Below are positions 1,114 to 25,651 of a stretch of 42,871 nucleotides of DNA, piece after piece. Origin of the DNA: Spirochaetaceae bacterium (GTDB taxonomy: Bacteria; Spirochaetota; Spirochaetia; SZUA-6; DRHE01). Made by a program: the position numbers and the translations under genes. Location: the NCBI GenBank assembly GCA_020353535.1, contig CP070696.1, positions 4,664,138-4,707,008 on the forward strand. The letters are read 5' to 3'. Below the pieces are notes generated by a model that was given only the letters and a program-made list of their open reading frames with translations, was not told the DNA's origin and ran no database searches. Within the stretch, counting starts at the first letter, position 1. Each line of letters begins with the position of its first letter.

Positions 1114-1128
1114 GAGGGGAGGAGAACC

Positions 1129-2617: not shown

Positions 2618-3816
2618 GAGAGGGGCTGACAGCAAGATTTGAGGATCTCCACAACGTCCTCCTGGGAGAGACCGACCAGATTGCCAACAGGGCGTCCCAG
2701 ATCTTTGAAGGTTTTCGCCGTGATCTCTTTGAGCTTCCCTTCCGGAATGTCCACCCCGGTCAGCTCCTGCAGGGTTTTCGGCGCGCCGATTGCTTGAAGC
2801 CACTGGATGTACTGCTCGACCCCCTGTATCGCCGCTTTCCTGTCATCGACAGCCTGGATGCCCAACACGTTGCGGGCGAAACGGGAGAAGATCTCCGTGG
2901 ACTTTGGATTCTTGTTGACCACGAAGCGCATCCAGCGGGGTGTGATCACCCCCAGGGTGGCGCCGTGGTGGGTGTCGTAGAAGGGCACGAAGCCCTCTGC
3001 CATGTCGTGGCAGGCCATGTCCGGACCGCCGCGACCGAGGAAAGTCAGGCCGCCCCAGGCCATTACCGAGCTCCACCAGATTTCGCCGCGGGCGCGCAGG
3101 TCCTTGGGATTCTTGACAAGTATGTCAACGCATTCCGTTACCGAATGAATTATTGCCTCAGAAAATCGGTTTTGAAAGATCGAGCGGTGGTAGCCGTTGA
3201 AGTAGAACTCGAAGGTGTGGCTGAGCATGTCCATGGCGCCCCAGATGGTGAGCCGGATCGGCACGGTGGCGTGGATCTCCGGATCGGCGATGGTCAGGTC
3301 GGGATACATGCACTCGGCGGTGACCGGCATCTTCCAGATAGCCTCTTTGTCCATGATCACCGCCCAGGGATTGATATCCGTTCCGGTGGCTGCCAGGGTG
3401 GGGATCATCACGGTGTCCAGGCTGTCGTTGAAGGGCTTCTTGTGTCCCCAGAGATGCTCCCAGGGATCGTCCTCGGATCTGCTGGCCGCGGCGATTACCT
3501 TTGTCGAATCCATGGTCGAGCCACCGCCCAGGGCAACGACGCACTCGATACTATTCTTCTTGCAGGTCTCTACGCCCTCCCGCACGCTGGTGATTCGTGG
3601 ATTGGAGTCGATATCGCCGATGTTGTAAATATCGATTCCTTCCGCCTTGATCGAGCCGGCGATCTCGTCGTACAGACCATTTTCCCGGAACGGACCCTTG
3701 GCCACCACGATCAGTGCCCGCTTGAACCCCCGTTTTTTCAGCTCCGATCCCACGCGTTTTCGCTCTCCAGGACCGAAGAGAATTCGGTCAGGATTGTAGT
3801 GTTCGAAATTTTCCAT
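2614..3816 (-). CDS. Iron-containing alcohol dehydrogenase (butanol dehydrogenase-like)
   Basis: GGGSTMD, PTLAATG, and metal ligands DMLSH...CHD...HHG. AGGAG RBS. Confidence 0.9.
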   Translation of the reverse strand: MENFEHYNPDRILFGPGERKRVGSELKKRGFKRALIVVAKGPFRENGLYDEIAGSIKAEGIDIYNIGDIDSNPRITSVREGVETCKKNSIECVVALGGGSTMDSTKVIAAASRSEDDPWEHLWGHKKPFNDSLDTVMIPTLAATGTDINPWAVIMDKEAIWKMPVTAECMYPDLTIADPEIHATVPIRLTIWGAMDMLSHTFEFYFNGYHRSIFQNRFSEAIIHSVTECVDILVKNPKDLRARGEIWWSSVMAWGGLTFLGRGGPDMACHDMAEGFVPFYDTHHGATLGVITPRWMRFVVNKNPKSTEIFSRFARNVLGIQAVDDRKAAIQGVEQYIQWLQAIGAPKTLQELTGVDIPEGKLKEITAKTFKDLGRPVGNLVGLSQEDVVEILKSCCQPLS

Positions 3817-3854
3817 ATAAAAACAACTCCTCTTAGTAAATTCGCGCCTGCTCT

Positions 3855-4844
3855 TTATCGTTCCCGCGTGCTTCTGGAGTAGACCACCAGCAGGACTATC
3901 AATATTGCCCCGAACAATGCCTTTCGCAGCGATTCGTCCATATTGACGGTTACCAGGAAGGAGAGCAGGAAGGTGTAAACCAGGGCCCCACCGAAAGTGC
4001 CTACATAACTACCGGATCCCCCGGCCAGGGAAATGCCGCCGATGGCGCAAGCCACTACCGATGGGAACATGTACTGGTTGCCCACATCTAGGAATACGGT
4101 ATGCACATAACCCAGAAGGATGGCGCCAAACAGCGAGGATATCATGCTGGACAGGCCGTAGACCCAGAAGCGGAAGAAGGGGACATTCACTCCGGAGAGG
4201 GTGGCCGCCGTCTCATTGGTGCCGACCCCCAGGAGTTTTTGTCCGGTCCGGGTGCGTCGTAAAATTAGCTCCGCAACAAGAGTCAGAGCCAGCCAGATGA
4301 GGATGATGAGGTGAAAGCCGCCGATTTTCCCGTTGGCGATCGTTTCCAGGGCGGGGGAGGCCGTGCCCAGCAGCTTCCGTCCCTGGGCGAAGGCGATGAT
4401 GATCCCCACCACCACGTAGCTCATGGCCAGGGTCATGATCAGGGGATGGATGCGCAGGTAGGCGATCATGTAACCGTTGACCATCCCCAATACCAGACCC
4501 ATGAGGGCAATCACGACCAGGGCGAGCAGGGTAGATCGCTCGCCGCCGTGCATGATGGTGGCGCTGAACAGTGCGCCCATGGAGGCCATAGTGCCGACAG
4601 ACACATCGATGCCGCCGCCACCGGACAGTATTACCGTGGTCTGGGCAATGGCCAGGATGCCGACAAACGAAGCCACTTTGATCATTATCAACAGGTGTCC
4701 GATCTCGGCGAACCCGGAGCTGGCGATCTGCCCGGCGATCAGGATCAGTCCGGCTATGGCAAAAGGGGTGATGCTCTTGCCGTTATCCCGCCAGAACTCG
4801 AGGAACCCGGTCCTGAAGGGAAGTGATTTCGTCTGATCGCTCAT
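3855..4844 (-). CDS. Sugar ABC transporter permease (RbsC-like)
   Basis: Hydrophobic; GGIDVSVG, G.NETAATLSGV (EAA loop) and IGGISLAGG motifs. Confidence 0.92.
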   Translation of the reverse strand: MSDQTKSLPFRTGFLEFWRDNGKSITPFAIAGLILIAGQIASSGFAEIGHLLIMIKVASFVGILAIAQTTVILSGGGGIDVSVGTMASMGALFSATIMHGGERSTLLALVVIALMGLVLGMVNGYMIAYLRIHPLIMTLAMSYVVVGIIIAFAQGRKLLGTASPALETIANGKIGGFHLIILIWLALTLVAELILRRTRTGQKLLGVGTNETAATLSGVNVPFFRFWVYGLSSMISSLFGAILLGYVHTVFLDVGNQYMFPSVVACAIGGISLAGGSGSYVGTFGGALVYTFLLSFLVTVNMDESLRKALFGAILIVLLVVYSRSTRER

Positions 4845-4857
4845 ATCGATTTTCCTC

Positions 4858-5820
4858 TTAATCGTATTTCCGTTTGTAGAAAACGGTGGCTCCGATAGCC
4901 AGGATGATGATCACTCCCCGCACGAACACCTGCCAGGAGGTGGGTATCCCCGCGAAGTAGATGATGTTCATGATGATGCTCAGACTGATCGCCCCCATTG
5001 CCGCGCCCACGGGATTTCCCCTGCCCCCGCCCATCACGATGCCGCCTATCACCGCAGCAGCGATGGAGTTCAGGGCGAAGGGCTCCCCCAGTCGGGCATC
5101 CCCCGCCCGGGTCTGGGCGGTGAGAGCCAGGGTGCCCAGATATACAAACACCCAGCCGATGGCAAAGGCCAGCAGGGTGATCCCTTTGACGTTGATGCCG
5201 TTGCGATAGGCCGCTTCCATATTGGACCCGGTGGCGTAGATATAGCGGCCGATCCGATAGCGCCGGAGAATGTGCCAGGCGATGAGCGCTATTACGATAC
5301 TCAAGAATATGAGGTTGAACGGTCCGACGTGAGCCTTGAAGAAGGTGGTGAAGTTTCTGGGCACGGCTCCCCCGGGCACGGGCCGCACCATGATGGCCAC
5401 ACCCAGCCAGACGAAGGAACTGGCGAAGGTTCCGATGAAAGAGGGCACTTTGAGGTAGCCTACCAGGATGCCGTTGGCGATGCCCATGGCAATCGCGGCA
5501 GCCAGGGCGAGTACCATCACCAGGGCATTGCGAAAGGGATCCGCCGGATCCACCACCATATAGGTTGCCAGGATGCAGTTGATCAGAGAAACCCCGTAAC
5601 CCACCGAGAGGTCGAGATTGCCGCTGATCATGATGATCGCTTGCCCGGCGGCAACCAGGATCAAGGGCGAAAAGGTGAGGATGTTGATGCGGAACACCGC
5701 TGCTCTGAACAGGTTCGGCTGCAGGATCCAGTTGATGACCACCAGGGCGAGCAGGAGCACGGCGGGCAGAAAAACAGGGTTCTTCAATGCCGAGGCCCAC
5801 GCAGTTCGCAGTTTGTTCAT
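4858..5820 (-). CDS. Sugar ABC transporter permease (RbsC-like)
   Basis: GNLDLSVG, GSNMEAAYRNGI and IAAAVIGG motifs. Start overlaps the ATPase stop. Confidence 0.92.
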   Translation of the reverse strand: MNKLRTAWASALKNPVFLPAVLLLALVVINWILQPNLFRAAVFRINILTFSPLILVAAGQAIIMISGNLDLSVGYGVSLINCILATYMVVDPADPFRNALVMVLALAAAIAMGIANGILVGYLKVPSFIGTFASSFVWLGVAIMVRPVPGGAVPRNFTTFFKAHVGPFNLIFLSIVIALIAWHILRRYRIGRYIYATGSNMEAAYRNGINVKGITLLAFAIGWVFVYLGTLALTAQTRAGDARLGEPFALNSIAAAVIGGIVMGGGRGNPVGAAMGAISLSIIMNIIYFAGIPTSWQVFVRGVIIILAIGATVFYKRKYD

Positions 5821-7373
5821 GCCTTTTCATCTCCCTGGGCTGCCGCCTTGTATTCCTGGCTGACTCCCTGGTGCTGCATGCATCTGATCATTAGTGTTTC
5901 CTCGTCGAGTTGCTCCGAGTTGGTGAGTTCGTCCACGATCCTGCCCTCGTACATGATCAGGATCCTGTCACAGATGTGCAACAGCTCGTTCAAATCCGAA
6001 GCGTAGAGGAAAATCGAGGTGCCTCCCATCGCGATATCCCCGACCAGTTTGTACAAGTCCGCTTTGGACTGTACATCGATCCCTTTGGCCGGATCGCTGA
6101 GCAACAGCACCTTTGGCTCGATGGGAAGCCACTTGGCTACGACCACCTTCTGTGCGTTTCCGCCGGAGAGGGCGGTCACAGGATTGCTGAGGGAGTCGGT
6201 CTTGAGGGTCAGATCTCTGGCCAGTTTCGAGGCGATGGCGGCCTGCTTCTTCTGCCCCAGGATCCAGGGTTGTCCCTTTGTGAGATTTTTGGGGAAGGTG
6301 GTGTTATGCATGACCGATAGTCCCATGAACAGCCCTTGAGTCTGCCTGTTTCCGGGAACCAGGGGCATACCTACGGCGATTGCGTTCTTCGGGTGCTTCA
6401 GGCGCAGGGCCTTATCATACATGTTCAGGCTGCCGTGTCGGATGTGGTTGTAGCCTGCCAGAGTCAGCATCAGTTCCTCCTGGCCCTGTCCCTGGAGGCC
6501 GGCCAATCCCACGATCTCCCCCCTGCTGATTTGAAAGCTGACTTCCTTGACTTTGTCGCCGTCGCCGATCGATTCCGCTCTCAGAATCACCTCCCCCAAT
6601 TTCCGGTCGATTGCCAGCCGTCTGTGGGCCTCCACGGCCCGCTGCCCGGTGATCAGGCGCACGATCTCGTCATAGTCGACATTTTCCGGATCGGATAGAT
6701 CAACGGTCCCGGCTGTCTTGCCGTTGCGAAGCACCACCACGTAGTCGCAGATCTCCTCCACCTCGTGCATGCGGTGAGAGATGAATACCATGGAAATCCC
6801 GAAGGCTTTGAGGTCTTTCATCAGCTTGAACAGGATCTCCACCTCTTCCCGTTCCAGAGCAGCGGTCGGCTCGTCGAGGATGAGAAACTCCGGTTTTCGG
6901 GAAAGGGCTTTGGAGATCTCCACCAGCTGCTGCTCGGAAGCCAGGAGCTTGCGTACCTCCCGGTTCATATCCAGCCAGGGACAGAGCCGATCAAGGTACT
7001 GTCGGGCCAGCACCCTGATCTGCTTGTTGTCCAGCATGCCCAGGGAGCCCCGCGGCTCGTTTCCAAGAAGAAGATTCTCCCACACGGTCAGATCGGGCAC
7101 CAGGCTGAAGTTCTGGTGGACCATGGCGATGCCGGCATCTTCAGCTTCTCTGGGGGAGGAAAAACGGACCTTCTGTCCCTTGAAGAGCAGTTCACCGTCG
7201 GTGGCCGCATAGTTGCCCATGATGATGTTGGACAGGGTGGTTTTACCCGAGCCGTTTTCTCCCAGCAGCCCGACGATCTGTCCTCCGGGACACAGGAACT
7301 CGGCCCCGTTGAGGGCGACCACGCCTCCGAACAACTTGCGGATGTTCCGTGCCTCGATTATGTATTCGCTCAT
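5817..7373 (-). CDS. Sugar ABC transporter ATP-binding protein (RbsA-like, two ABC domains)
   Basis: Walker A GENGSGKT, ILDEPT, ISHRM and LSGGNAQK motifs. Confidence 0.95.
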   Translation of the reverse strand: MSEYIIEARNIRKLFGGVVALNGAEFLCPGGQIVGLLGENGSGKTTLSNIIMGNYAATDGELLFKGQKVRFSSPREAEDAGIAMVHQNFSLVPDLTVWENLLLGNEPRGSLGMLDNKQIRVLARQYLDRLCPWLDMNREVRKLLASEQQLVEISKALSRKPEFLILDEPTAALEREEVEILFKLMKDLKAFGISMVFISHRMHEVEEICDYVVVLRNGKTAGTVDLSDPENVDYDEIVRLITGQRAVEAHRRLAIDRKLGEVILRAESIGDGDKVKEVSFQISRGEIVGLAGLQGQGQEELMLTLAGYNHIRHGSLNMYDKALRLKHPKNAIAVGMPLVPGNRQTQGLFMGLSVMHNTTFPKNLTKGQPWILGQKKQAAIASKLARDLTLKTDSLSNPVTALSGGNAQKVVVAKWLPIEPKVLLLSDPAKGIDVQSKADLYKLVGDIAMGGTSIFLYASDLNELLHICDRILIMYEGRIVDELTNSEQLDEETLMIRCMQHQGVSQEYKAAAQGDEKA

Positions 7374-7422
7374 ATACCCCTACAGAATCGGATTTCCCGC
7401 GCACATGTCAATAGAAATGGCG

Positions 7423-7473
7423 GAAAAAAAAGAAGGAGCTGATGGAGGAGCTGTAGCTCCGCCATCAAGCTCC
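7423..7473 (-). terminator. Stem-loop plus U-tract between the binding-protein and ATPase genes
   Basis: Minus strand reads GGAGCTTGATGGCGGAGC-TACA-GCTCCTCCATCAGCTCC followed by TTCTTTTTTTT. Confidence 0.75.
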
Positions 7474-7491
7474 GTACATGTGCGGATTCGC

Positions 7492-8550
7492 TTATTTGAA
7501 AAGCTTTCGAACCTCTTCGTCGCTGGCGAACTCTGAGATCCAGGTTGCAGGGTCCTGACCCGCGTATTCTTTGAGGTAGTCATCGAGATTGTCATTCGTG
7601 ACCAGAGTCTTGACCGGGTAGAAATAGGTGTTGTCCTTGAGAACACCGTCCTTGAACTCGTATCCGTGCAGCATGTATACGCCAATGGCCAGAGCGGTTC
7701 CGCCGATTCCCGGAGGATTGGCCGGAGCGGCGAAGATGAACTCTTTGCCGGCTTTGCGCTGTTCATCGCAGAAGAGCATGAACTCGACGGTGGGATCACC
7801 GGTGATAGCCGGAAGCGGACGGCCCGCATTTTGAAAAGCCCGCAGAGCGCCCATACCCATAGAACCGACGGTGATCACAGCGTCGATCTTGGGATAGGCC
7901 GCCACAACGTCGTTCATGACCGCTTCTGCGGTTGCCTGGTTCCACTCGCCGTAGACGGTGGTGAGGACCTTGACACCGGGGAACTCTTTCAGTGCGCCTT
8001 TGACACCTTCATGCCGCTTCTGGGTGGGCTGATAAGCGGCGTTGCCGAGCATGACAACCACATCGCCCTTTCCGCCCATCTTCTGCAGTACATATTTTGT
8101 GGCGCCGTACATCTCCACGTATTTATCCGAGGCAACACTCAAAGCCAGTTTGCGGTCCTCCCCGACCAGCTCGGCGTCGAATACGATGCTGGGGATGCCC
8201 ACATCCTTGGCCTCTTCGATCACACCGGTGAGACCCGATGCGGAAGCCGGGTTGATCGTTATCAGATCGACACCCTGGTTGATCATGTTGCGGATCTGCT
8301 GGATCTGAGTTTGCACATCCGGTCCGGACTGCTGCACCACCGTGTCTTTGAGCCAGCCTTTCTTAATGTAAAAATCCGCGACCGTGGCCATGTCTTCCAG
8401 CATCTTTTCCCGCCAGAGGTTTCCGTAGAGGCTGTTGCTGATGCCGATGAGGAAGTCACCCTCTGCTGTTTTTCCTGCCGTGCCGCCGGCAAAGGCAAAG
8501 AATGAGCAGACCACCACGAGAATGAGAGTGAGGAACAGGATTTTCTTCAT
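7492..8550 (-). CDS. Sugar ABC transporter substrate-binding protein (RbsB-like, periplasmic binding protein type I)
   Basis: Signal peptide MKKILFLTLILVVVCSFFAFAGG, QIQQIRNMINQGVD, GEWNQ. GGAGAGG RBS supports ATG 8550. Confidence 0.92.
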   Translation of the reverse strand: MKKILFLTLILVVVCSFFAFAGGTAGKTAEGDFLIGISNSLYGNLWREKMLEDMATVADFYIKKGWLKDTVVQQSGPDVQTQIQQIRNMINQGVDLITINPASASGLTGVIEEAKDVGIPSIVFDAELVGEDRKLALSVASDKYVEMYGATKYVLQKMGGKGDVVVMLGNAAYQPTQKRHEGVKGALKEFPGVKVLTTVYGEWNQATAEAVMNDVVAAYPKIDAVITVGSMGMGALRAFQNAGRPLPAITGDPTVEFMLFCDEQRKAGKEFIFAAPANPPGIGGTALAIGVYMLHGYEFKDGVLKDNTYFYPVKTLVTNDNLDDYLKEYAGQDPATWISEFASDEEVRKLFK

Positions 8551-8634
8551 CTTTTCCTCTCCTTTTTGAGGTTTTTTGGGATGGTTCCGACGGGCTGCAA
8601 TGAACCATTGCAGTTCCTCCCGCCAACGAGTCAT

Positions 8635-8793: not shown

Positions 8794-9525
8794 ATGAATA
8801 ACGAACTCCAGCTCGACAAGATCAAACAGAAGACCGTTGTTGAACAGGTCATGGACAAGATACGGGAGTTGATCAGCTCGGGACAATTCCAGGCCGGGGA
8901 TAAGATCCCGACGGAGAGCGAGCTGGCCGAGATGTTCGGCATCGGGCGCTCCTCGATCCGGGAGGCGATCAAGGTTTTCAACTATCTCGGTGTGTTGCAG
9001 TCCCGCACGGCCAAGGGGACCTACGTCTGTGAGCGTTCCAACATCTCCGACGAAGCCCTGACCTGGTCCATCTTGCTTGGCAGGGACGATTACTACCACC
9101 TGATCGACATGCGCGGGGCCATTGAGCTGTGGAGCATGATGTCTCTGGCCGATCGCTACGGCACGGACCCCGAAAGCGTTCGGGAGTGCCTGTCCCGTCT
9201 GGAGGTGCTGCTGGAGAGGATGCGCCAGGCGATTGCGGCTTCCGACTCTGAGCAGCTGGCCACCGCGGACTACGACTTTCACAGCACCGTGATCGGGGGC
9301 AGCGACAACAAGGTCTTCACCGCCATCTACCAGGTGCTGCGCTCATTCATGTACGAGGAGATCGAGAAGTCCCATCAGGATTTCACGGATATCACCACAA
9401 TCATCCAGGAGCATCGGGAGTTCATCGATGCCATCCGTACGGGCAAGGCTGGGATAGCCGAGGAGATCGTGCGCAAGCATATCGCCAGCATCAAGCGCAG
9501 GCTGGCCAACGTTCTGAAGAAATGA
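8794..9525 (+). CDS. FadR/GntR family transcriptional regulator
   Basis: wHTH KIPTESELAEMFGIGRSSIREA...KGTYV, plus an FCD domain (DYDFH, SDN, EH, HI). Confidence 0.95.
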   Translation: MNNELQLDKIKQKTVVEQVMDKIRELISSGQFQAGDKIPTESELAEMFGIGRSSIREAIKVFNYLGVLQSRTAKGTYVCERSNISDEALTWSILLGRDDYYHLIDMRGAIELWSMMSLADRYGTDPESVRECLSRLEVLLERMRQAIAASDSEQLATADYDFHSTVIGGSDNKVFTAIYQVLRSFMYEEIEKSHQDFTDITTIIQEHREFIDAIRTGKAGIAEEIVRKHIASIKRRLANVLKK

Positions 9526-9612: not shown

Positions 9613-9641
9613 TTGACAGCAGAATTATCAGGCAATATTAT
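9613..9641 (+). promoter_or_regulatory. Sigma70 promoter of the GRE operon with an embedded operator (copy 3)
   Basis: TTGACA (9613-9618), 17 nt, TATTAT (9636-9641). ATTATCAGGCAAT at 9624-9636 occupies the spacer; AT-rich UP-like tract upstream. Confidence 0.8.
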
Positions 9642-9687: not shown

Positions 9688-11967
9688 ATGGAAGCGCGCT
9701 TGGAACGAATCAAACAGCGGCTGTTTGAGGAGTACTATCGGAAAAAGGAGTGGTGGGGCGACGAACTGAGCATCTTTGACGACGATCCCGCGGCCGGAGA
9801 GAAACCCCTGGTCGTGCGCAAGGCTCTGGCCATACAAAAGGTCTGCCGGGAGATTCCGATAGAGGTAAAATGCGACGAGCTGGTCGTGGGCATGTGCACC
9901 ATGTCCTCAGTGGGATTCGGCCATACCTTTCCCCGCTACGAAACCGATGAAGAGGCCGAAGCCTCTGCCAAGGTCTGCTTGAACAGGAAATCCGTCTGGG
10001 GACACCACAATCCCTACTATCCTGATATCCTCAAGCATGGACTGGAGGGCATCATTGCAAAAGCCCGCAACTACAAGGATAAGCTCAGCGCCGAGGATGT
10101 AGAGACCCGCAACTGGTACGAGGCGGTCATGCTGGCGCTTCAGGGCGCGGAGATTCTGGCCAAGAGGTACGCCGATTTGAGCGAGTACCTTGCCGGAGAG
10201 GCTGAGAGCGAAGAGCGCAAAGCCGAGCTGATGGAAATCGCCCGTATCTGCTGCAAGGTGCCGATGAAACCCGCCGAAAGTTTTCACGAGGCACTGCAGA
10301 GCGTCTGGCTGGTGCACGCCATCCTGCAGAGCACCCTGAACTACACCTCGATCGGCCGGGTCGATCAGTACCTGTTTCCGTATTACAAGCAAGACATCGA
10401 CAGCGGCAAGATTACAAAAAGCCAGGCCCGGGAACTGCTGGGCTCCTTTCTGGTCAAGTTCAATGAACGGGTGCAGCTCAACAATGATCACATCGAGGAT
10501 CACTTCACCTTCGGTGACTGGTCCCAGGGGGGAGATCCGGATCTGGAGACCACCCACCTGAAGATGTCCAACGACATGGACTATACCTACGGCCAGTCCT
10601 CCAATCACTGGCTGCAGAACTGCGTGGTAAGCGGCCTCACACCGGAGGGCAAGGACGGCACCAACGATCTGTCCTACCTTGTAATCGATCTGGTCAATGA
10701 GCTCGAGCTGATCGATCCGCTGGTTTCGGTTCGCCTGCATAAGGATTCTCCGGAAGGCATCGTAGAGATCACCGCCAAGTACCTGGCCAAGGGCGGCGCC
10801 CAGCCCACGGTGTTCAACGACGACACGGTGATCCCGGGAATGGTGCAGTATCAGGGAGTGAGCCTGGAAGATGCCCGGGACTACAGCAACGACGGCTGCT
10901 GGGAGACCATCCCCTACGGCCGAACCGAGTTCGGCTACGGGCATATCGAGATTCTCTTGAGCCTGGAGAGCCTGCTGAACCGAGGCAAGTCCCTGCTCAA
11001 CGGAAATCCCATCGGGCCGGATCTGGGATCTCTGTCCGAGTTCGACACCTTCGACAAGCTCTTCGAGGCCTTCACGCGCCAGGTCAAGGATCGCATCGAT
11101 ATTGCCGTGGACAACAAGCTGCGCTACTACGATGAGGTACACAAGATCGCACCGGTGCCCTTTCTCTCCGGTATTACCAAAGATTGTCTGGAAAAGGGCA
11201 AGGACATGACCCAGCGGGGTGCCCGCTATCGGCTGTACGCTCCCTTGATCACCGGTTTCTCCCACTGCATCGACAGCCTGGCGGCTATCAAAAAGGTCGT
11301 CTATGAGGAGAAGAAAGTAATCCTGGAGCAGTTGGTCGATGCCTTGCGGAGCAACTGGGATGGGCAGGAGCAGCTGCGCCAATACGTGCTCAACCGGGTG
11401 CCCAAATACGGCAATGACGACGACTACGTGGATGCCATCGGTACACGTTTTCTCACCTGGTACTGCGAATACTTCGACCAGTGGAACAGGAAGGTCGATT
11501 GGCTCACCTTTGCTCCGGGTGTTGGAACCTTCGAGAATTATCCCCGTCTGGGATATGTGTGCGGTGCCTCGGCGGACGGACGTCTGGCTCAAGCGCCCCT
11601 GGCTTCCAACTACTCTCCCTCCCTCGGATTGGATGTGAATGGACCGACCGCCGTCCTGAAATCGGCCACCAAGTTCGACCTGGGTCGTCTCAACGACGGC
11701 TGTCCCGTAGATATGCGCATGAACTTCAGCGATACCAACGGCGAGGGCAGGAAGATCCTCAAGGATTTCATCAGGAGCTTCGTCAGGCTCGGCGGCAATA
11801 TCCTGACCATCAGCAAGGTCAGCACAGAGACGCTGAGAGCGGCGCAGAGGGAGCCGGAGAAGTACGCCTCCTTGAGGGTCCGCCTGGGCGGATTGACCGC
11901 CTACTTCGTTCAGCTGTGTGAAACCCAGCAGAACGAGTTCATCCGGCGCACGGAACACAGCTTCTAG
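9688..11967 (+). CDS. Glycyl radical enzyme (PFL2/dehydratase-like superfamily), function unknown
   Basis: GRE landmarks SIGRVDQYLFPYY, PKYGNDDDYVD and GASADGR. Cys loop SNDGCWET (Cys404) and Gly loop LRVRLGGLTAYF (Gly735). GGAGG RBS supports ATG 9688. Confidence 0.93.
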   Translation: MEARLERIKQRLFEEYYRKKEWWGDELSIFDDDPAAGEKPLVVRKALAIQKVCREIPIEVKCDELVVGMCTMSSVGFGHTFPRYETDEEAEASAKVCLNRKSVWGHHNPYYPDILKHGLEGIIAKARNYKDKLSAEDVETRNWYEAVMLALQGAEILAKRYADLSEYLAGEAESEERKAELMEIARICCKVPMKPAESFHEALQSVWLVHAILQSTLNYTSIGRVDQYLFPYYKQDIDSGKITKSQARELLGSFLVKFNERVQLNNDHIEDHFTFGDWSQGGDPDLETTHLKMSNDMDYTYGQSSNHWLQNCVVSGLTPEGKDGTNDLSYLVIDLVNELELIDPLVSVRLHKDSPEGIVEITAKYLAKGGAQPTVFNDDTVIPGMVQYQGVSLEDARDYSNDGCWETIPYGRTEFGYGHIEILLSLESLLNRGKSLLNGNPIGPDLGSLSEFDTFDKLFEAFTRQVKDRIDIAVDNKLRYYDEVHKIAPVPFLSGITKDCLEKGKDMTQRGARYRLYAPLITGFSHCIDSLAAIKKVVYEEKKVILEQLVDALRSNWDGQEQLRQYVLNRVPKYGNDDDYVDAIGTRFLTWYCEYFDQWNRKVDWLTFAPGVGTFENYPRLGYVCGASADGRLAQAPLASNYSPSLGLDVNGPTAVLKSATKFDLGRLNDGCPVDMRMNFSDTNGEGRKILKDFIRSFVRLGGNILTISKVSTETLRAAQREPEKYASLRVRLGGLTAYFVQLCETQQNEFIRRTEHSF

Positions 11968-11968: not shown

Positions 11969-12880
11969 GTGCGGAGCGATTTGCAGGGCTTAGTCTTCGA
12001 CATTCAACGCTTCTCGATCCACGACGGTCCGGGAATCCGAACACTGGTGTTCATGAAGGGCTGTCCGCTGCGCTGTTCCTGGTGCAGCAACCCGGAGAGT
12101 CAGCAGGCTAAACCGGAGATCATGTACTTCGAGGAGAAGTGCATCCACTGCGGCGCCTGCCTGGAGGCCTGCCCGTACGGGGAGGTGCTGGAGGAGAACT
12201 GGCCCGTGGCAACGGAGCTCTGTTACGGCTGCGGCAGCTGCGTGGAGGTTTGTTATGCCGAGGCTCGAAAGCTGGTAGGCCGCTGGTATACGGTAGAGCA
12301 GGTGTCCGATATCGTAGAGAGGGACAGGGTGTTCTATGAAGAGTCGGGAGGCGGTATGACCGTCGGCGGAGGAGAGCCAATGTTTCAGGCTGCCTTTGTC
12401 GCCGGCCTCCTGCAGACCTGCCGCCGGCGGGGCATCCACACGGCCATAGAGACCTGCGGCTTCACCCCGTGGAAAACCATGAGCAAGGTACTCGAACATA
12501 CGGATCTGCTCCTAATGGATATCAAGCACATGGACAGCCAGACGCACAAGAAACATACCGGCGTGGGGAATGAACGCATCCTGGAAAATGCCCGCAAGGC
12601 GGCTGATGTGGTGGGAGAGATGGTGGTGCGTCTACCCCTGATTCCCGATTTCAACGATGGGCATGAGAACATCCGTGCCCTCGGGAGGTTCGTGGCTGAG
12701 CAGCTGCCGGCGGTGCAGCGGATCGACGTGCTTCCCTACCACTCCACGGGGGAGTCGAAGAGCAAAAGGCTGGGCAGACCCTATACCCTCCCCGGACTCA
12801 AGCCCCAATCCCGTGAAAAAGTGGATGCCGTAGAGCAAATTTTGCAGTCCTATGGAATAAAGATTAGAATAGGTGGTTGA
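11969..12880 (+). CDS. Glycyl-radical enzyme activating enzyme (radical SAM) with 2x[4Fe-4S] ferredoxin insert
   Basis: FSIHDGPGIRT, KGCPLRCSWCSNPE (CX3CX2C), insert CIHCGACLEACP / CYGCGSCVEVC, GGGEP, LPYH. Start GTG 11969 (TTG 11981 is an alternative). Confidence 0.94.
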   Translation: MRSDLQGLVFDIQRFSIHDGPGIRTLVFMKGCPLRCSWCSNPESQQAKPEIMYFEEKCIHCGACLEACPYGEVLEENWPVATELCYGCGSCVEVCYAEARKLVGRWYTVEQVSDIVERDRVFYEESGGGMTVGGGEPMFQAAFVAGLLQTCRRRGIHTAIETCGFTPWKTMSKVLEHTDLLLMDIKHMDSQTHKKHTGVGNERILENARKAADVVGEMVVRLPLIPDFNDGHENIRALGRFVAEQLPAVQRIDVLPYHSTGESKSKRLGRPYTLPGLKPQSREKVDAVEQILQSYGIKIRIGG

Positions 12881-12951: not shown

Positions 12952-14142
12952 ATGAACGCAATCAGAGTTGGTGTAATCGGGGGCGGATTCATCGGCAAGA
13001 TCCACATCGAAGCGCTGCGGCGCCTCGGCTACGTCGAGGTCGCCGCCATCGTTTCCAGAAAGCAGGAAACCGCCGAGGCTCAGGCCAAAGAGCTTTCGAT
13101 TCCAAAAGCCTACAGCAAGTACGAAGACCTGTTCAACGACAAAGATATCGATGTAGTACACCTGACTACGGTCAACAGCCTTCACTACCCCTTGGCCAAG
13201 CAAGCCATGCAGAAGGGAAAGCATGTATTGTGCGAAAAACCCTTGGCCATGAACAGCAAGGAAGCGGTGGAACTGCTCAAGATCGCCCGACAGCAGAAGA
13301 TCGTGCACGCCATCTGCCACAACATGCGCTACTATCCCCTGGTCAAACAGGCCCGGGCCATGGTGCGTGCCGGAGAAGCCGGAGAGGTCCGCTTGATCCA
13401 CGGGCACTACCTGCAGGATTGGTTGTTTCTGGCCACCGATTACAACTGGCGCCTTATCTCCAGCTTGAGCGGCGGTTCCCGGGCCGTGGCCGATATCGGC
13501 ACCCACTGGCTGGATATGGTCCAGCACATCACCGGACAGAAAGTAACCGCGGTCAGCGCAGATCTGACCACCTTCATCCCGGTGCGCAAGAAGCCAAAGG
13601 TGGAGGCGGCTACCTACGTCGTACAGGAGCTGAAGCCCGAGGACTATGAAGATGCAAAAATCGACACCGAAGACCACGGCACGGTGGTGTTGAAATTTTC
13701 AGGCGGAGCCAAGGGCGTCCTGGTTGTCTGTCAGGTCTGTGCGGGCCGTAAGAACTACATCCACTTCGAGATCAACGGTTCCAAGAAAACCCTCGATTGG
13801 AACGGGCAGGAGCCGAATACGATGTGGGTCGGACAGCGGGGAGAGCTGAACGGCGAGTTTATCAAGGATCCGGCGATGTTCCATCCCGATGCAGCCCGCT
13901 ACGCCGGTGCCCCCTGCGGTCTGGGCGAGGGTTATCTGGACACCTTTAAGAATATCTTCTCGGATTTCTATTCCTGGATCCGGGAGGGCAAAGCCATGAA
14001 CGAGGAGAAGGTTGCCTTTCCGACCTTTGTGACCGGGCTGCAGGAATTGCTGCTGGTGGACGCCATTTTGGAAAGCAACGCCAAGAAAGGGCAGTGGGTC
14101 GAGGTGAGCTATCGGGATGGAGCCGAAGCGGAGTACCGCTAG
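12952..14142 (+). CDS. Gfo/Idh/MocA family NAD(P)-dependent oxidoreductase
   Basis: GVIGGGFIG, HVLCEKPLA and ADIGTHWLD motifs. AAGGAGG RBS before ATG 12952. Confidence 0.92.
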   Translation: MNAIRVGVIGGGFIGKIHIEALRRLGYVEVAAIVSRKQETAEAQAKELSIPKAYSKYEDLFNDKDIDVVHLTTVNSLHYPLAKQAMQKGKHVLCEKPLAMNSKEAVELLKIARQQKIVHAICHNMRYYPLVKQARAMVRAGEAGEVRLIHGHYLQDWLFLATDYNWRLISSLSGGSRAVADIGTHWLDMVQHITGQKVTAVSADLTTFIPVRKKPKVEAATYVVQELKPEDYEDAKIDTEDHGTVVLKFSGGAKGVLVVCQVCAGRKNYIHFEINGSKKTLDWNGQEPNTMWVGQRGELNGEFIKDPAMFHPDAARYAGAPCGLGEGYLDTFKNIFSDFYSWIREGKAMNEEKVAFPTFVTGLQELLLVDAILESNAKKGQWVEVSYRDGAEAEYR

Positions 14143-14226: not shown

Positions 14227-16077
14227 ATGAAAGCAAAAGGATATTTTGGGAAAATTCTACGGGTCGATTTGTCGAGCGGAGAAATCCGAACCGACGAGCT
14301 GGATGAACAGGCGGCGGAGACCTTCATCGGCGGCAATGGTCTGGGCACGAAGATTCTTTTCGAAGAAACAGCGGCGGACACCGATCCCCTGGGGCCAGAG
14401 AATCCGCTGATCTTTGCAGTCGGACCGCTGACCGGCACCAAGCTGTTCAATTCCGATCGTTTTGACGTAGTAGCAAAATCTCCGCTGACCGGGATCTATG
14501 GGGAAGCGAGCGCCGGTGGCTACTGGGGTGCCAAGTTCAAACGCTGCGGCTTCGACGCCCTGGTTGTGAAAGGAAAAGCGGATAAGCCCGTATACCTGTA
14601 TATAGAAAACGACAAGGCCGAGCTCCGGGACGCCGGGCATCTCTGGGGCAAAGAGACCTTTGAGACCATAGACAGACTTCAAGACGAACACGGAGAGACC
14701 GTGAAGGCCGTGATCATCGGTCCGGCCGGGGAAAATCAGGTGCGGGTGGCCAATATGATCACAGACGGATACCACGGGCGCGCGGTAGGCCGCTGCGGAT
14801 TTGGGGCTGTCATGGGCTCGAAGAACCTGAAGGCCGTGGCCGTGAACGGCAGCAGGGAGGTCCCCGTCGCTGATCCTGAAAGCTTCAAGGCCCTGCAGAA
14901 GAGGCTGGGACCGATCATGCGGGAAGGTCCCCAGGCCCTGCGAGAAGGCGGAACCAGCGTCGGTACCGAGTTCTGCAATGAGATCGGCAACATGCCCGTA
15001 AAGAACTGGAAACAGGGATCCTTCGCCGAGGGGGCCAAGAAGCTCACCGGCATGACTCTGGTCGAAACCCTGTTGAAGGATCGCTATCACTGCGGCAGCT
15101 GCGTGATCAACTGCGGCCGGGTCGTGGAAGCGGCGGACGGGCCCTACAAGGGCAAGCTCACCGCCGGTACGGAATACGAGACCGTGGGCCTGATGGGTAC
15201 GAACCTGTTGGTTGGGGACCTGCCCACCGTGCTCAAAGCCAATCAGCTCTGCAACCGCTACGGTTTGGACACCATTTCCACGGGAAGCGTGATTGGTTTC
15301 GCCATGGAAGCCTGGGAGCGGGGATTGATCGGTGCCAAGGACACAGGCGGTGTAGAGCTGACCTGGGGCAGCGGTCCGGCTTTGCTGAAAATGATCGAGC
15401 AGATCGCCTTCAAAAAGGATATCGGAGCCGTGTTAGAGGGAGGGGTTAAACGAGCCGCGGCCAAGATCGGCGGAGAGGCCAGGGACTTCGCCTTGGAAGT
15501 GAAGGGTCTGGAGCCGCCGGCCCACGATCCCCGGGCCAAGATGACCATAGCCGTGGGCTACGCCACCTCCAACCGGGGCGCCTGCCATTTGGCGGCCTTC
15601 ACCCACGATTTCGAGGAAGGGGCCTCTATAGATGATCTGGGGCTGCCCGTGCTCAAAGATCGCTTCAATACCGAGGGCAAGGCGGAGAACGTCGTGGTAA
15701 TGCAGCATCTGATGACCATGTTCGACAGCCTGGTCTGCTGCAAGTTCGGACTGTTCGGAGGGCTGACCGTGGATCCGTTGATCGAAGCGCTGAACGCCGT
15801 GACGGGCTGGAGCTTCGACAGGAAGCGTTTCTTCAAGACAGGAGAACGGATCTTCAACCTCAAGAGGCTGTACAACAACAGGTTGGGAATCGGAGCCAAA
15901 GACGACGTTCTGCCTAAGCGCATGCGTCACGAAATCAAGGGCGGAGGTACGGAGGATCATCTGCCGCCTCTGGAGGCGATGATGAAGGAGTACTACAAGC
16001 TGCGGAGCTGGAATCCGGCTACCGGAGTGCCGGAAAAGAGGAAGATCGAGGAGCTGGGACTGACCGCCTACGCCTGA
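14227..16077 (+). CDS. aor: Aldehyde:ferredoxin oxidoreductase (AOR family, probably W-pterin)
   Basis: KSPLTG, GRCGFGAVMGSKNLKA, CGSCVINC, EYET, GLDTISTG, HDPR and NRGACH motifs. Confidence 0.93.
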   Translation: MKAKGYFGKILRVDLSSGEIRTDELDEQAAETFIGGNGLGTKILFEETAADTDPLGPENPLIFAVGPLTGTKLFNSDRFDVVAKSPLTGIYGEASAGGYWGAKFKRCGFDALVVKGKADKPVYLYIENDKAELRDAGHLWGKETFETIDRLQDEHGETVKAVIIGPAGENQVRVANMITDGYHGRAVGRCGFGAVMGSKNLKAVAVNGSREVPVADPESFKALQKRLGPIMREGPQALREGGTSVGTEFCNEIGNMPVKNWKQGSFAEGAKKLTGMTLVETLLKDRYHCGSCVINCGRVVEAADGPYKGKLTAGTEYETVGLMGTNLLVGDLPTVLKANQLCNRYGLDTISTGSVIGFAMEAWERGLIGAKDTGGVELTWGSGPALLKMIEQIAFKKDIGAVLEGGVKRAAAKIGGEARDFALEVKGLEPPAHDPRAKMTIAVGYATSNRGACHLAAFTHDFEEGASIDDLGLPVLKDRFNTEGKAENVVVMQHLMTMFDSLVCCKFGLFGGLTVDPLIEALNAVTGWSFDRKRFFKTGERIFNLKRLYNNRLGIGAKDDVLPKRMRHEIKGGGTEDHLPPLEAMMKEYYKLRSWNPATGVPEKRKIEELGLTAYA

Positions 16078-16120
16078 AGCGTTTCCTCCTCTACAGCCGC
16101 AGAAAAAAGGTAGTCGATTT

Positions 16121-16393: not shown

Positions 16394-16421
16394 AGACTCA
16401 CAGTATAAGAAGGGATAACCT

Positions 16422-18086
16422 ATGCCGAAGATGACCGGGGCACAGTACATCGCAGCGACGCTTGAAGCCTACGGTATAACCCACGTGTTCTACGTGGAAG
16501 CGATACTGCGCAGAACCCTCGTGGAAATGGAAAAGCTGGGCATCAAGAGGATCCTGGCCCACTCAGAGAAGGCCGCCGCCTACATGGCGGACGGATTCGC
16601 CAGAGCGGGACTGCGGCCTGCGGTGTGCATGGCCCAATCCGTGGGCGCGGCCAACCTGGCCGCCGGGCTCCAGGACGCCCGCCTGGGACATGCCCCGATC
16701 CTGGCCTTTACAGGACGCAAACCCCCGCTGTTCCAGTACCGCAATGCCTACCAGGAGATCCTGCACAACACCATGTTCGAAGCGGTAACCAAGTACAATG
16801 CGGAGGTCCACACCCTCGAGCAGGTTCCCCACCTGTTGGCCCAGGCCTTCCGAGAGGCCACGACCGGTACGCCGGCTCCGGTGCATCTGGATTTTCTCGG
16901 TTATGAGGGAAACTTCACGGATGAGGCGGAGGCGGAGCTCAACGTTCTCTGTGAGCCCGAGTACACCCGCATCCCGGCCAGGCGGCCGCACCCGGATCCC
17001 CGGGAGATCGAGACGGCCGCTCAAAGCCTGCGCAAAGCGGAGCGTCCGGTTCTGGTGGTGGGCCGGGGCGCGGTGGTCTCCGCAGCCGGAGCGGAGGTTC
17101 GCAAGCTCGCTGAAACCTTGAGCATTCCCGTGGCCTTCTCCATGGACGGGAAGGGCCTGATTCCCGACGATCATCCGCTTTCGGTAGGAGCCGTAGGAAC
17201 CTACTGCCGTCCCTGCGCCAACAGGACCGTGGCTGAAGCGGATCTGGTGTTCTTCATAGGCTGTGGCACAGGGGATCAGGTCACCAAGAACTGGACCTTA
17301 CCCGCGGCAGGAACAGCGGTGATTCAGCTGGACATCAATGCGGCGGAGATCGGACGCAACTATCCGGGGACGATCGGGATTCTCGGGGACGCCCGGATCG
17401 CCTTGGAACAGCTCAATCAGGCGATCTCCGCCAGGGTGAACAAGGAATCCTGGAGCCGTACGGTGCAGGGTTACGTAAGGGAATACCTCGAAAAGATCGA
17501 ATCCCTCTGCGGCTCCGCCGCCTCCCCCATACGGACCGAGTGTCTGTGCCGGCGGATCAGCGAAGCCCTGCCCGACAATGCCGTGGTGGTAGCCGACACC
17601 GGCTACTCCGCCATCTGGGCCGGGACCCTGATCGACATCACTAAATCGGAGCAGAAATACCTAAGAGCCTCCGGCTCCCTCGGGTGGGCCTTTCCCGCCG
17701 CCTTGGGCGCCAAGTGCGCGCTGCCTGAGCAGCCGGTGATCTGCTTCTCTGGTGACGGGGCTTTCTGGTATCACCTCTGCGAGCTGGAAACCGCGGTACG
17801 GCGAAACATCCCCACGGTCACGATCATCAACAACAACAGCGTGCTTGGTCAGAGCCAGCTGGGTATCCGCCGGGCTTATCGTGATGATGAAGGGCGGGAA
17901 CAGGAGCAGTACCGCTTCCAGGATACCGACTTTGCCAGGCTGGCCGAGGATCTCGGCGCCTTGGGAATCCGGGTGGAAAAGGCCGAAGAGATCGCACCGG
18001 CTGTCCGTCGGGCCATAGAGGAGAACCGGCCAGCGGTGGTGGACGTGGCTACAGAAGCGGAATGCCACCCGCTGTTGACCTGGTAA
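16422..18086 (+). CDS. ThDP-dependent enzyme, acetolactate synthase/decarboxylase-like family
   Basis: HSEKAAAYMADG (catalytic Glu), GSLGW, and the ThDP motif SGDGAF...INNN. Confidence 0.88.
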   Translation: MPKMTGAQYIAATLEAYGITHVFYVEAILRRTLVEMEKLGIKRILAHSEKAAAYMADGFARAGLRPAVCMAQSVGAANLAAGLQDARLGHAPILAFTGRKPPLFQYRNAYQEILHNTMFEAVTKYNAEVHTLEQVPHLLAQAFREATTGTPAPVHLDFLGYEGNFTDEAEAELNVLCEPEYTRIPARRPHPDPREIETAAQSLRKAERPVLVVGRGAVVSAAGAEVRKLAETLSIPVAFSMDGKGLIPDDHPLSVGAVGTYCRPCANRTVAEADLVFFIGCGTGDQVTKNWTLPAAGTAVIQLDINAAEIGRNYPGTIGILGDARIALEQLNQAISARVNKESWSRTVQGYVREYLEKIESLCGSAASPIRTECLCRRISEALPDNAVVVADTGYSAIWAGTLIDITKSEQKYLRASGSLGWAFPAALGAKCALPEQPVICFSGDGAFWYHLCELETAVRRNIPTVTIINNNSVLGQSQLGIRRAYRDDEGREQEQYRFQDTDFARLAEDLGALGIRVEKAEEIAPAVRRAIEENRPAVVDVATEAECHPLLTW

Positions 18087-18105: not shown

Positions 18106-18873
18106 ATGGACTATAAGAAGATATTCGATTTGACGGGAAGAGCGGCAGTCGTGACCGGGGCGAGCAGCGGCATCGGCAGGGCGATCGCCCTGGGCCTGGC
18201 CGCTCACGGCGCGGACGTTCTGGTGGCCGGACGGAATCCGCAGCGTACCGCGGAAACCGCCGAACAGGTGGCGGCTTTGGGCAGGAGGTCTATCGCCTTC
18301 GAGCTCGAGGTATCCAGCAGGGACAGTGCCCAGGCCATGGCGGTTCGGGCAATATCAGAGTTCGGGCATATCGATATCCTGGTCAACAGCGCAGGCATGA
18401 ACATCCGCAAGCTTATTCTTGAGATCCATGACGAGGACTGGGATCCCGTGCTCACGGTAAACCTGAAGGGGACCCTATACTGCTGTCAGGCAGTGGGGCG
18501 CTACATGGTCGAGCAGAAACACGGCAAGATACTGAACGTGGCCTCGATCTCCTCGAAGCTGGGGCACCCCGCCCGGGGAGCCTACGCTTCCAGCAAGGGT
18601 GGATTGATACAGCTGACCAAGGTAATGGCTACCGAATGGGCTCCCTATAACGTCTGCGTCAACGCCATTTCTCCGGCCGCTGTAGATACCCCGTTCATCA
18701 GCGGCTTGAAGAAGGATCGCCAGCGGTTGGACAGGGAACTGGAGCGCATTCCCCTGGGCAGAATTGCCACGCCGGATGATGTGGTCGGAGCGGCTGTATT
18801 TCTTGTTTCTGCGGCCTCGGACTTCATTACCGGGCACAACCTGATCATCGACGGCGGGCGCACCGTAGACTGA
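18106..18873 (+). CDS. SDR oxidoreductase (gluconate 5-dehydrogenase/KduD-like)
   Basis: TGASSGIG, VNSAG, YASSK and ITGHNLIIDGG motifs. Confidence 0.9.
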   Translation: MDYKKIFDLTGRAAVVTGASSGIGRAIALGLAAHGADVLVAGRNPQRTAETAEQVAALGRRSIAFELEVSSRDSAQAMAVRAISEFGHIDILVNSAGMNIRKLILEIHDEDWDPVLTVNLKGTLYCCQAVGRYMVEQKHGKILNVASISSKLGHPARGAYASSKGGLIQLTKVMATEWAPYNVCVNAISPAAVDTPFISGLKKDRQRLDRELERIPLGRIATPDDVVGAAVFLVSAASDFITGHNLIIDGGRTVD

Positions 18874-22239: not shown

Positions 22240-22243
22240 GGCT

Positions 22244-25645: not shown

Positions 25646-25651
25646 GGCCTC

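Follow-up and report, generated by a model that had tools for sequence, protein, structure and literature searches.

Sequence evidence for an uncharacterised subfamily of glycyl radical enzymes with a remodelled radical site and a sugar operon linked to aldehyde:ferredoxin oxidoreductases

Glycyl radical enzymes (GREs) catalyse anaerobic reactions that are chemically difficult, and we describe here a GRE encoded at positions 9688–11967 of a 42,871-nucleotide stretch of a Spirochaetaceae bacterium genome (GenBank assembly GCA_020353535.1, contig CP070696.1, positions 4,664,138 to 4,707,008; this whole stretch is referred to as the window, and positions are given in its coordinates). The protein belongs to a monophyletic clade that, by sequence comparison, appears to be a GRE subfamily not yet characterised, in which both the radical site and the pocket are remodelled, and whose genes lie in a conserved sugar operon linked to aldehyde:ferredoxin oxidoreductases (AORs). 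In the anaerobic breakdown of sugars or polyols the enzyme probably carries out a step that has not been described so far, and we see an even chance that it is a functional C–O-cleaving dehydratase or ring-opening isomerase of the type carrying a Cys-X-Glu (CXE) loop, acting on an unphosphorylated sugar-derived polyol. According to the excerpted text of a recent review (PMC13450708), each newly assigned GRE has exposed an unrecognised pathway, as for choline conversion to trimethylamine, hydroxyproline, sulfonates and anhydroglycolysis, and whole GRE clades are still without experimental validation.

The 9688–11967 open reading frame (ORF) is free of stop codons, codes for a 759-residue product, and has a GGAGG sequence 9 nt ahead of its ATG start codon; the spacer upstream is AT-rich and holds a promoter-like sequence (Table 1). 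The Pfam families PFL-like (PF02901, E 2.8e-140) and Gly_radical (PF01228, E 7.6e-13, 49.4 bits with a cut-off of 22.2) both match the product. An AlphaFold2 model (predicted local distance difference test score, pLDDT, 86.6; predicted template-modelling score, pTM, 0.90) was compared using Foldseek with solved structures, giving template-modelling (TM) scores of 0.80–0.85 to all solved PFL-like GREs at identities of only 23–29%. With its PFL-like ten-stranded barrel domain, C-terminal radical Gly, Cys-loop Cys and adjoining activase gene, the protein falls in the PFL-like division (IPR004184) and is a genuine GRE.

Active-site positions were assigned from an alignment of 106 GREs comprising 40 clade rows, 65 non-clade rows and PflB, which we regard as validated because it reproduces known numbering, both for YbiW C441 and E443 as in the excerpt of PMC13450708, and for PflB Arg, Trp, Cys, Arg and Gly at ORF positions 177, 334, 420, 436 and 735. 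At these five PflB positions the window protein has H106, L309 (beside W308), C404, H419 and G735, all of which are conserved in the clade. We take PflB ORF positions 177, 334 and 436 to be the active-site residues R176, W333 and R435 of the mature protein. C404, the putative thiyl-radical Cys, shares a column with YbiW C441 and PflB C420 (ORF numbering), E406 with YbiW E443, and G735, the putative radical Gly, with YbiW G786 and PflB G735 (ORF numbering, corresponding to mature G734); a published abstract gives PflB G734 and C418/C419. The first-pass annotation, made from the sequence alone, had placed a single active-site Cys in SNDGCWET at 10891–10905, and the Cys is indeed single, but these positions span DGCWE and not all of SNDGCWET. 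Its radical Gly loop at 11881–11895 stands, with RLGGL present there and G735 aligned with the radical Gly of both PflB and YbiW.

The adjacent Cys-Cys pair of pyruvate formate-lyase (PFL) is absent, with G403-C404 here as opposed to C-C in PflB, and the CXE of 1,2-eliminases and isomerases is present as C404-W405-E406. In the excerpt of PMC13450708 the CXE motif is kept by all GRE 1,2-eliminases and isomerases, with the Glu hydrogen-bonded to the substrate hydroxyl, in agreement with the earlier reading of a single catalytic Cys within a C-x-E loop. The residue H106 lies in a Gly-His column that holds His in 40/40 clade and 65/65 non-clade rows, and Arg in PflB. This conserved column, rather than a direct alignment, suggests that H106 is the equivalent of His164 of glycerol dehydratase (GD), which the same excerpt describes as the donor protonating the leaving hydroxyl. 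The adjacent H107 is present in 38/40 clade rows, with I, L or T elsewhere.

The Gly loop R-L-G-G-L departs from the RVXG[FWY] fingerprint given for GREs in the excerpted text of PMC11528403. We sampled the best 120 of 922 word-index matches, spanning 45–100% identity, of which 102 are full length. Among these 102 the Cys loop is DGCWE in 101 and DGCHE in one, and the Gly loop is RLGGL (85), RLGGV (9), RMGGL (4), RLGGF (2) or RLGGI (1), the one remaining protein having a scrambled C-terminus; the residue after the radical Gly is L in 89, V in nine, I in one and F in two, and is thus aliphatic in 99/102. The variant loops thus characterise the clade as a whole and are no error in a single sequence. 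Non-clade rows of the 106-GRE alignment read R-V(65/65)-[ATS]-G-Y(64/65), as compared with L or M at the Val position in clade rows and L after the Gly in 38/40. Given the broken fingerprint and the modest Gly_radical score, the protein could be a GRE homologue that has lost its catalytic activity or been repurposed; we consider this extremely improbable, as Gly735, Cys404 and Glu406 are invariant in 23/23 aligned clade members (45–85% identity), a cognate activase gene adjoins the GRE gene in 17 of 18 clade loci (the contig of the eighteenth ends there), and the variant loop is itself conserved. Moreover, the aminoacyl radical enzymes, with Ala, Ser or Thr at the radical position, show that the site tolerates harsher change (PMC13450708 and PMC11528403, both in excerpt); in the window protein, Gly is kept at 735. 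RVxG[FWY] is a recognition pattern and not a mechanistic requirement.

The strand that usually reads HIQFNV had been noted to read ILTISKV, and the alignment bears this out across the clade: the Gln and Asn of HIQFN are present in 65/65 and 64/65 non-clade rows, as against Thr in 39/40 and Thr or Ser in 38/40 clade rows. A long acidic and His-rich segment, also remarked on from the sequence alone, corresponds to residues 277–306, a stretch of 30 columns of which 28 are gapped in 65/65 non-clade rows and the final two in 64 and 63. It forms part of a clade-specific active-site loop (residues 268–309) that replaces a short canonical AG[FY]P loop, and in which H272, G281, G302 and N306 are present in 40/40 clade rows, E270 in 39/40, and W308 and L309 in 38/40. 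The polar barrel strand T614-F615-E616-N617-Y618 is similarly conserved (T, F and E in 40/40 clade rows, N in 37/40 and Y in 39/40), with non-clade rows reading [STP][VWT][SNT][AYC][HNW], and the clade is without about 50–70 N-terminal residues that relatives carry after about residue 85, as read from the alignment by eye. Clade-specific polar residues are found at H107, S215, E260/R261, D402, H419, E616, N617 and Y618, as well as at E270, H272, N306 and W308 of the loop; at S215, E616, N617, Y618, H107 and H419 the residues of relatives are mostly hydrophobic or smaller. These substitutions suggest a pocket that is larger and rich in hydrogen-bonding groups.

A FastTree phylogeny of 106 rows rooted on PflB was built from 81 GRE ORFs (L001–L080), 22 proteins from the homologue list and three E. 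coli references; L060, a fragment with no long enough ORF, was left out. All 40 DGCWE rows are monophyletic, with SH-like support of 100 and a stem length of 0.67. The nearest neighbours, with weak SH-like support of 82–90, are the HypD clade, identified via L025 (1550 bits to NF043068), and a PVGCLENT/RVTGYNAYF clade from Chloroflexota and Actinomycetota. A scan of species-representative genomes gave 18 loci with a relative at 40–78% identity; among these loci, all at no less than 40% identity, DGCWE is present in 18/18 and R[LM]GG[LV] in 17/18 (the L014 C-terminus lies outside the pattern), as compared with GCWE in 0/63 further GRE ORFs at 37% identity or less from the other loci kept, of which 60 have RV[ATS]G[YF].

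The NCBIfam profiles tell the same clade apart from characterised enzymes. The protein scores 457.7 bits with TIGR01774 (PFL2/glycerol dehydratase subfamily), below the cut-off of 678.2, as do the clade members L007 and L004 (418.2 and 414.8 bits), and scores with equivalog models fall far short of their cut-offs: CutC 405/1050, HypD 402/1100, HpsG 382/1000, HpfG 381/1000, PflD-type 356/1109, IAD 268/1100, HPAD 235/1150 and PFL 64.5/994. Identity to any solved structure is 29% or less, CutC being the top match. The suggestion that Trp after the Cys together with a non-aromatic residue after the Gly matches no characterised GRE holds insofar as equivalog scores, identities and tree position all set the protein apart; the Trp, however, is not peculiar to the clade, as described below. 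Taken together, the tree, profiles and motifs point to a new, uncharacterised subfamily within the CXE group; a new GRE class, in the sense of reaction type, is not something that sequence settles. Two side observations concern relatives. The [PV]VGCLENT plus RVTGYNAYF group (L019, L020 and 11 further loci, e.g. L019:3833-6340) is a second uncharacterised clade, which likewise falls short of the TIGR01774 cut-off of 678.2 (536.9 and 597.7 bits), and the homologue P0051, at 60% identity, has the isolate-like source name 'Clostridium sp. E02'.

When 1.84 billion cluster representatives (50% identity) were searched exhaustively with HMMER, 1983 GRE-like proteins were returned at E <= 1e-30, and of the best 150 of these, 35 have GCWE and 26 have DGCWE. 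Gly loops among the 35 are GG-W (10), GG-L (4), W-G-F (4), GG-F (2) and singletons (3), with 12 fragments or unmatched, and DGCWE is paired with RVGGW or RMGGW in relatives from the window's own taxonomic family. Because many GCWE relatives carry W or F after the Gly, the two features are separable: the Trp after the Cys marks a large uncharacterised radiation, and it is the aliphatic residue after the Gly, together with WGHH, TFENY and GQSxNxWL, that distinguishes the branch of the window and the sister branch. The idea of a 'volume swap', whereby the Trp after the Cys would offset the aromatic residue lost after the Gly, was considered and rejected, given the DGCWE relatives with GG-W or GG-F and the presence of both W and F in P0116; only P0090 (H and F) fits the idea. 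Four other proteins (P0140, P0159, P0167 and P0202) combine GCWE with an R[VI]WGF loop that has Trp ahead of the radical Gly, and we know of no function for this group. Homologues in the ESM Atlas are named only in general terms, for instance 'pyruvate formate lyase family protein', and literature searches gave no match for RLGGL or RMGGL among the matches listed, those listed for GCWE and DGCWE being all unrelated.

The gene for the GRE-activating radical SAM enzyme has a likely GTG start at 11969, where it begins 2 nt beyond the end of the GRE stop codon, and the two genes are translationally coupled. They are followed by genes for a Gfo/Idh/MocA oxidoreductase (Gfo), AOR1, a thiamine diphosphate (ThDP)-dependent enzyme, a short-chain dehydrogenase/reductase (SDR), an iron-containing alcohol dehydrogenase (Fe-ADH) and AOR2, and preceded by a GntR/FCD regulator gene (Table 1). 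A divergent unit further upstream encodes an ATP-binding cassette (ABC) sugar transporter, and is possibly tied to the GRE, in view of its adjacency and the recurrence of sugar ABC genes near clade members. No sugar kinase gene was found within the GRE operon of the window or that of a related genome, G019.

Table 1. Positions of the GRE, its sequence elements and the associated genes within the window.
Feature	Position	Strand	Remarks
Divergent unit, possibly associated	1769..8634	-	CUT2-type sugar ABC transporter, Fe-ADH and TIM barrel
Ketose-epimerase-like TIM barrel	1769..2803	-	divergent unit
Fe-ADH	2614..3816	-	divergent unit
CUT2 ABC permease	3855..4844	-	divergent unit
CUT2 ABC permease	4841..5830	-	divergent unit
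CUT2 ABC ATPase	5817..7373	-	divergent unit
CUT2 ABC binding protein	7492..8634	-	divergent unit
GntR/FCD regulator	8794..9525	+	Pfam GntR 3.4e-22, FCD 1.7e-19; upstream of GRE
Promoter-like candidate TTGACA-17-TATTAT	9613..9641	+	sigma-70-like; 11/12 consensus positions; consensus match only
GRE (protein P0001)	9688..11967	+	from translation; DGCWE clade
W104-G105-H106-H107	9997..10008	+	H106 at Gly-His position conserved in CXE-type GREs
Clade-specific active-site loop, residues 268–309	10489..10614	+	in place of short canonical loop
Cys loop D402-G403-C404-W405-E406	10891..10905	+	C404, putative thiyl-radical Cys; E406, CXE Glu
T614-F615-E616-N617-Y618	11527..11541	+	clade-specific polar barrel strand
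Strand N704-ILTIS-K710	11797..11817	+	replaces canonical H-I-Q-F-N (106-GRE alignment)
Gly loop R732-L733-G734-G735-L736	11881..11895	+	G735, putative radical Gly
GRE-activating radical SAM enzyme	11969..12880	+	TIGR02494 371.9 bits (cut-off 174.35); Radical_SAM and Fer4; CX3CX2C in translation
Gfo/Idh/MocA NAD(P) oxidoreductase	12952..14142	+	Pfam; likely start ATG 12952
AOR1	14227..16077	+	AFOR_N 2.9e-83, AFOR_C 1.5e-126
ThDP-dependent enzyme, acetolactate-synthase (ALS)-like family	16422..18086	+	TPP_enzyme N, M and C domains
SDR	18106..18873	+	profile matches
Fe-ADH	18889..20055	+	profile matches
AOR2	20066..21763	+	AFOR_N 2.6e-55, AFOR_C 4.9e-67

We examined a set of 41 related genomes, counting the window's own. 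GRE orthologues at 78–80% identity are present in three of four genomes of another genus in the same family, and no GRE match above 35% identity was found in the nine other genomes of the window's own genus that were searched (completeness 73–95%). In G019, which belongs to a genus other than the window's, the gene order is GntR (68%), GRE (78%), activase (59%), Gfo (71%), ThDP enzyme (70%), SDR (75%), Fe-ADH (64%) and AOR2 (64%), which is the order of the window minus AOR1, at identities of 59–78%; the operon is flanked by a second Gfo gene, a CUT1-type sugar ABC system and an SDR gene. The gap between the AOR1 and ThDP enzyme genes of the window (16078–16421) is about 345 nt, as compared with 1–85 nt at other operon junctions. 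In view of this long gap and the absence of AOR1 from the otherwise collinear G019 operon, AOR1 may have been inserted in the window or lost from G019.

Gfo orthologues at 70–71% identity also follow the GRE and activase genes in L001, L085 and L094. Counted over the 18 clade loci plus the window (n=19), for which the numbers are lower bounds since many contigs are short, the neighbours include genes for a sugar ABC permease (10), a sugar ABC ATPase (7), Fe-ADH, AOR and SDR (6 each), GntR/FCD (5, besides that of the window), aldehyde dehydrogenase (4), split transketolase and a zinc-dependent alcohol dehydrogenase (Zn-ADH; 3 each), and Gfo (3, besides those of the window and L001). At L007 the GRE gene is preceded by genes for an AOR, a PBP-type anion ABC importer, two copies of MoeA and a ThiF/MoeB-like protein, and followed by a sugar ABC system with a radical SAM gene further downstream; the anion importer is likely a tungstate or molybdate transporter. 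A literature search pairing glycyl radical enzymes with aldehyde ferredoxin oxidoreductase found nothing relevant.

Other loci have distinctive surroundings of their own. L008 (18285-21145), in the sister subclade, carries genes of the 4-hydroxybutyryl-CoA dehydratase (HpaB_N/HpaB), acetyl-CoA hydrolase/transferase and glyoxalase families, and the same dehydratase-family and glyoxalase-family genes are present at L006; these neighbours hint that the Bacillota concerned make butyrate by a C4 route. L096 (G012:C2:118000-137067) has two GRE-activase pairs, with a Zn-ADH gene and an unannotated stretch between them; one GRE has DGCWE and RVGGWQAYF, the other VSGCVEPV and RVAGYSAFF, and an AOR, a CUT2 sugar ABC system and a LacI regulator are encoded alongside. 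The window's genome has two more GRE homologues (G000:C1:1815377-1816717 and G000:C1:365648-367039), each 33% identical over the C-terminal half.

From these patterns we infer a reaction type, a substrate class and an order of pathway steps. The activase would install a radical on G735, from which it would move to C404, and the resulting thiyl radical would take a hydrogen from a hydroxyl-bearing carbon. E406 would then deprotonate the hydroxyl, and H106, possibly with H107, would aid departure of the neighbouring C–O group. The net reaction would be either 1,2-elimination (dehydration) of a vicinal diol or an isomerisation opening a ring or ether C–O bond. The presence of CXE together with a conserved His makes an eliminase/isomerase mechanism the most economical one. 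The substrate is envisaged as a neutral, unphosphorylated, sugar-derived polyol, candidates being a sugar alcohol, an anhydro- or deoxy-sugar, or a cyclitol, that the adjoining ABC system would import and the Gfo/Idh/MocA and SDR dehydrogenases would adjust; sugar transporters and sugar-type dehydrogenases, along with the lack of an operon kinase, argue for an unphosphorylated carbohydrate-derived substrate. The ThDP enzyme would cleave a carbonyl product, with the aldehydes either oxidised by the two AORs or reduced by Fe-ADH, and it is the steady presence of aldehyde-oxidising and aldehyde-reducing neighbours that points to such a product. The C–C-cleaving ThDP partner is ALS-like in the window, and the sister subclade has a split transketolase instead.

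It is conceivable, if unlikely, that the enzyme performs a different chemistry, such as C–C cleavage, decarboxylation, or C–N or C–S elimination, perhaps on a sugar acid or other carboxylate sensed by the GntR/FCD regulator. The regulator gene adjoins the GRE gene in the window, G019 and five further loci, the active-site strands and radical domain are unlike those of every characterised class, and the co-occurrence of a ThDP enzyme or split transketolase indicates C–C chemistry within the pathway. However, a single Cys is present rather than the PFL Cys-Cys pair, the two decarboxylase NCBIfam models score only 235–268 bits versus cut-offs of 1100–1150, and no small-subunit gene was identified between the GRE and activase genes, the second of which starts 2 nt past the final base of the first one's stop codon. 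C–S lyases hold the sulfonate with two Arg and a Gln in the excerpt of PMC13450708, and CXE with a conserved His is the signature of eliminases and isomerases.

Two specific routes for the preferred sugar-derived substrate were set aside. An IolG/IolE/IolD-like cyclitol route finds no counterpart in the ThDP enzyme, for which the IolD model is not in the best 25 of 52 ThDP families, and IolE-type dehydration is radical-free; a literature search for glycyl radical and inositol gave nothing relevant among the matches listed, and a cyclitol route stays one candidate within the substrate class. For a levoglucosan route, the top NCBIfam match of Gfo is levoglucosan dehydrogenase, at 189.2 bits versus a cut-off of 650, and to our knowledge the known pathway needs no GRE.

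Several observations weigh against C–O cleavage of a neutral polyol by the standard mechanism. The transporter is not uniform, being CUT1 in G019 and CUT2 in the window, and the divergent unit is not conserved in G019. At L002, which encodes a 74% orthologue, the GRE gene is accompanied by genes for major facilitator superfamily (MFS) transporters, PfkB, BtpA, ADP-ribosylglycohydrolase and MTTB instead of ABC, AOR and alcohol dehydrogenase genes. GntR/FCD regulators usually sense carboxylates, and a sugar acid therefore fits as well as a neutral polyol. The roles of the ThDP enzyme, Gfo and SDR are guesses, since all three score below every curated cut-off, the ThDP enzyme reaching at most 342 bits versus 673. 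The 268–309 loop is modelled with low to moderate confidence (pLDDT 54–77), and the changes in the Gly-radical domain (V to L/M, A to G, Y to L, Q to T and N to T/S) could alter radical storage beyond what the standard mechanism foresees.

A bolder proposal is that the GRE catalyses an undescribed reaction, namely radical dehydration or ring opening, on an unphosphorylated sugar, anhydro-sugar or cyclitol. It would thereby open an anaerobic route that needs no kinase, and in that route a ThDP lyase and AORs dependent on tungsten or molybdenum would take over from the aldolase and CoA-acylating steps of known GRE pathways. We offer this tentatively, as a possibility falling somewhat short of probable; if it is true, the remodelled radical domain would represent another workable architecture in which a glycyl radical can be stored. 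As the clade shows, both RVxG[FWY] and the Gln/Asn of HIQFN can be replaced with Gly, Cys and activase kept, which bears on motif-based mining for GREs and on how the radical is stabilised. The link to AORs, together with the molybdenum cofactor synthesis genes and likely tungstate or molybdate importer of L007, goes unmentioned in the excerpt of PMC13450708. Its conserved operon, cognate activase, transporter and regulator can guide the search for a substrate and make the clade a well-defined target.

The rest of the window contains further genes that we record for completeness. Split class-I fumarate hydratase genes, the Fumerase N-terminal part followed by the C-terminal part, lie at 226–1716 (+), and a VapC/PIN-family toxin gene (21802–22314, -; TIGR00028 107.6 bits, cut-off 73.6) is just past the end of the operon. 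The region from 24449 to 40076 holds further sugar and alcohol catabolism genes, including a carbamoyltransferase-like gene (24449–25681, -), an FGGY kinase gene (26784–28289, -), genes for E1-alpha, E1-beta and E2 of a 2-oxoacid or acetoin dehydrogenase complex (28480–31763), a second CUT2 sugar ABC system (32806–37553) and a third Fe-ADH gene (38910–40076).

Among characterised GREs, the roster given in the excerpt of PMC13450708 (June 2026) comprises six C–O, one C–N and three C–S eliminases as well as three isomerases. A DGCWE/RLGGL-type enzyme is not named in that excerpt, which gives Cys loops only as CXE and leaves out the Gly loop, so that the motif is neither named nor excluded. The best match is CutC (PDB 5FAU, 9F3X, 5A0U), with a phmmer E value of 4.2e-115, a Foldseek E value of 1.5e-48 and a TM score of 0.83, and the two share a single Cys, a CXE loop and a dedicated activase. 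However, identity is 28–29%, the TIGR04394 score is that given above for CutC, and CutC has the loops GCVEP and RVAGY. As read from the phmmer alignment (chain index plus 46), Asp216 of CutC occupies the position of His106, and a CutC loop lies where the window protein has the inserted polar loop; we take Phe395 to be the CutC residue at its centre. No choline-utilisation or microcompartment genes are among the window genes annotated, the screen having covered part of the ORFs.

GD and 1,2-propanediol dehydratase (PDB 1R8W/1R9D and 5I2G) resemble the window protein in their CXE loop, His donor, aldehyde-handling neighbourhood and fold (TM 0.85). A divergent but isofunctional dehydratase of small diols (glycerol, 1,2-propanediol or ethylene glycol), with AOR and Fe-ADH disproportionating its aldehyde product, would account for these likenesses and for the pairing of a GRE with aldehyde-oxidising and alcohol dehydrogenase functions, as in known diol dehydratase pathways. 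We consider this very doubtful, since identity to the GD and propanediol dehydratase structures is only 26–27%, the TIGR01774 score is below its cut-off, and the pocket strands differ, with TFENY in the barrel, an insertion of at least 30 residues in place of the canonical loop, and the N-terminal deletion of about 50–70 residues. In addition, no shell genes are among the genes annotated, a screen of part of the ORFs, and sugar transporters and sugar-type dehydrogenases accompany the GRE.

The preferred reading, C–O cleavage on a sugar-derived polyol, has its closest parallel in YbiW and PflD, which ring-open 1,5-anhydroglucitol-6-phosphate and 1,5-anhydromannitol-6-phosphate and are the sole characterised sugar-acting GREs in the excerpt of PMC13450708. 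They employ CXE chemistry on a ring C–O bond, and the window operon is likewise sugar-associated with a C–C-cleaving enzyme encoded downstream. They differ in being only 25–26% identical, in falling in separate tree clades, and in their loops (GCIE and RVAGY in YbiW, GCVE and RVAGY in PflD). The E. coli YbiW/PflD route involves import by a phosphotransferase system (PTS), phosphorylated substrates and an aldolase, as opposed to ABC import, no operon kinase, a ThDP enzyme and AORs in the window; on anhydroglucitol in connection with glycyl radicals, a literature search yielded just the review PMC13450708 and a clinical paper. The HypD clade is one of the two nearest in the tree, at the weak support given above, and the window protein has the low HypD score already noted (402 bits versus 1100) and 25% identity to 6VXC. 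Finally, the aminoacyl radical enzymes (PMC13450708 and PMC11528403, in excerpt) also break RVxG[FWY] and are also unassigned in function, but they replace the radical Gly by Ala, Ser or Thr, whereas the window protein keeps G735 and changes the residues that flank it (V to L, A to G and Y to L).

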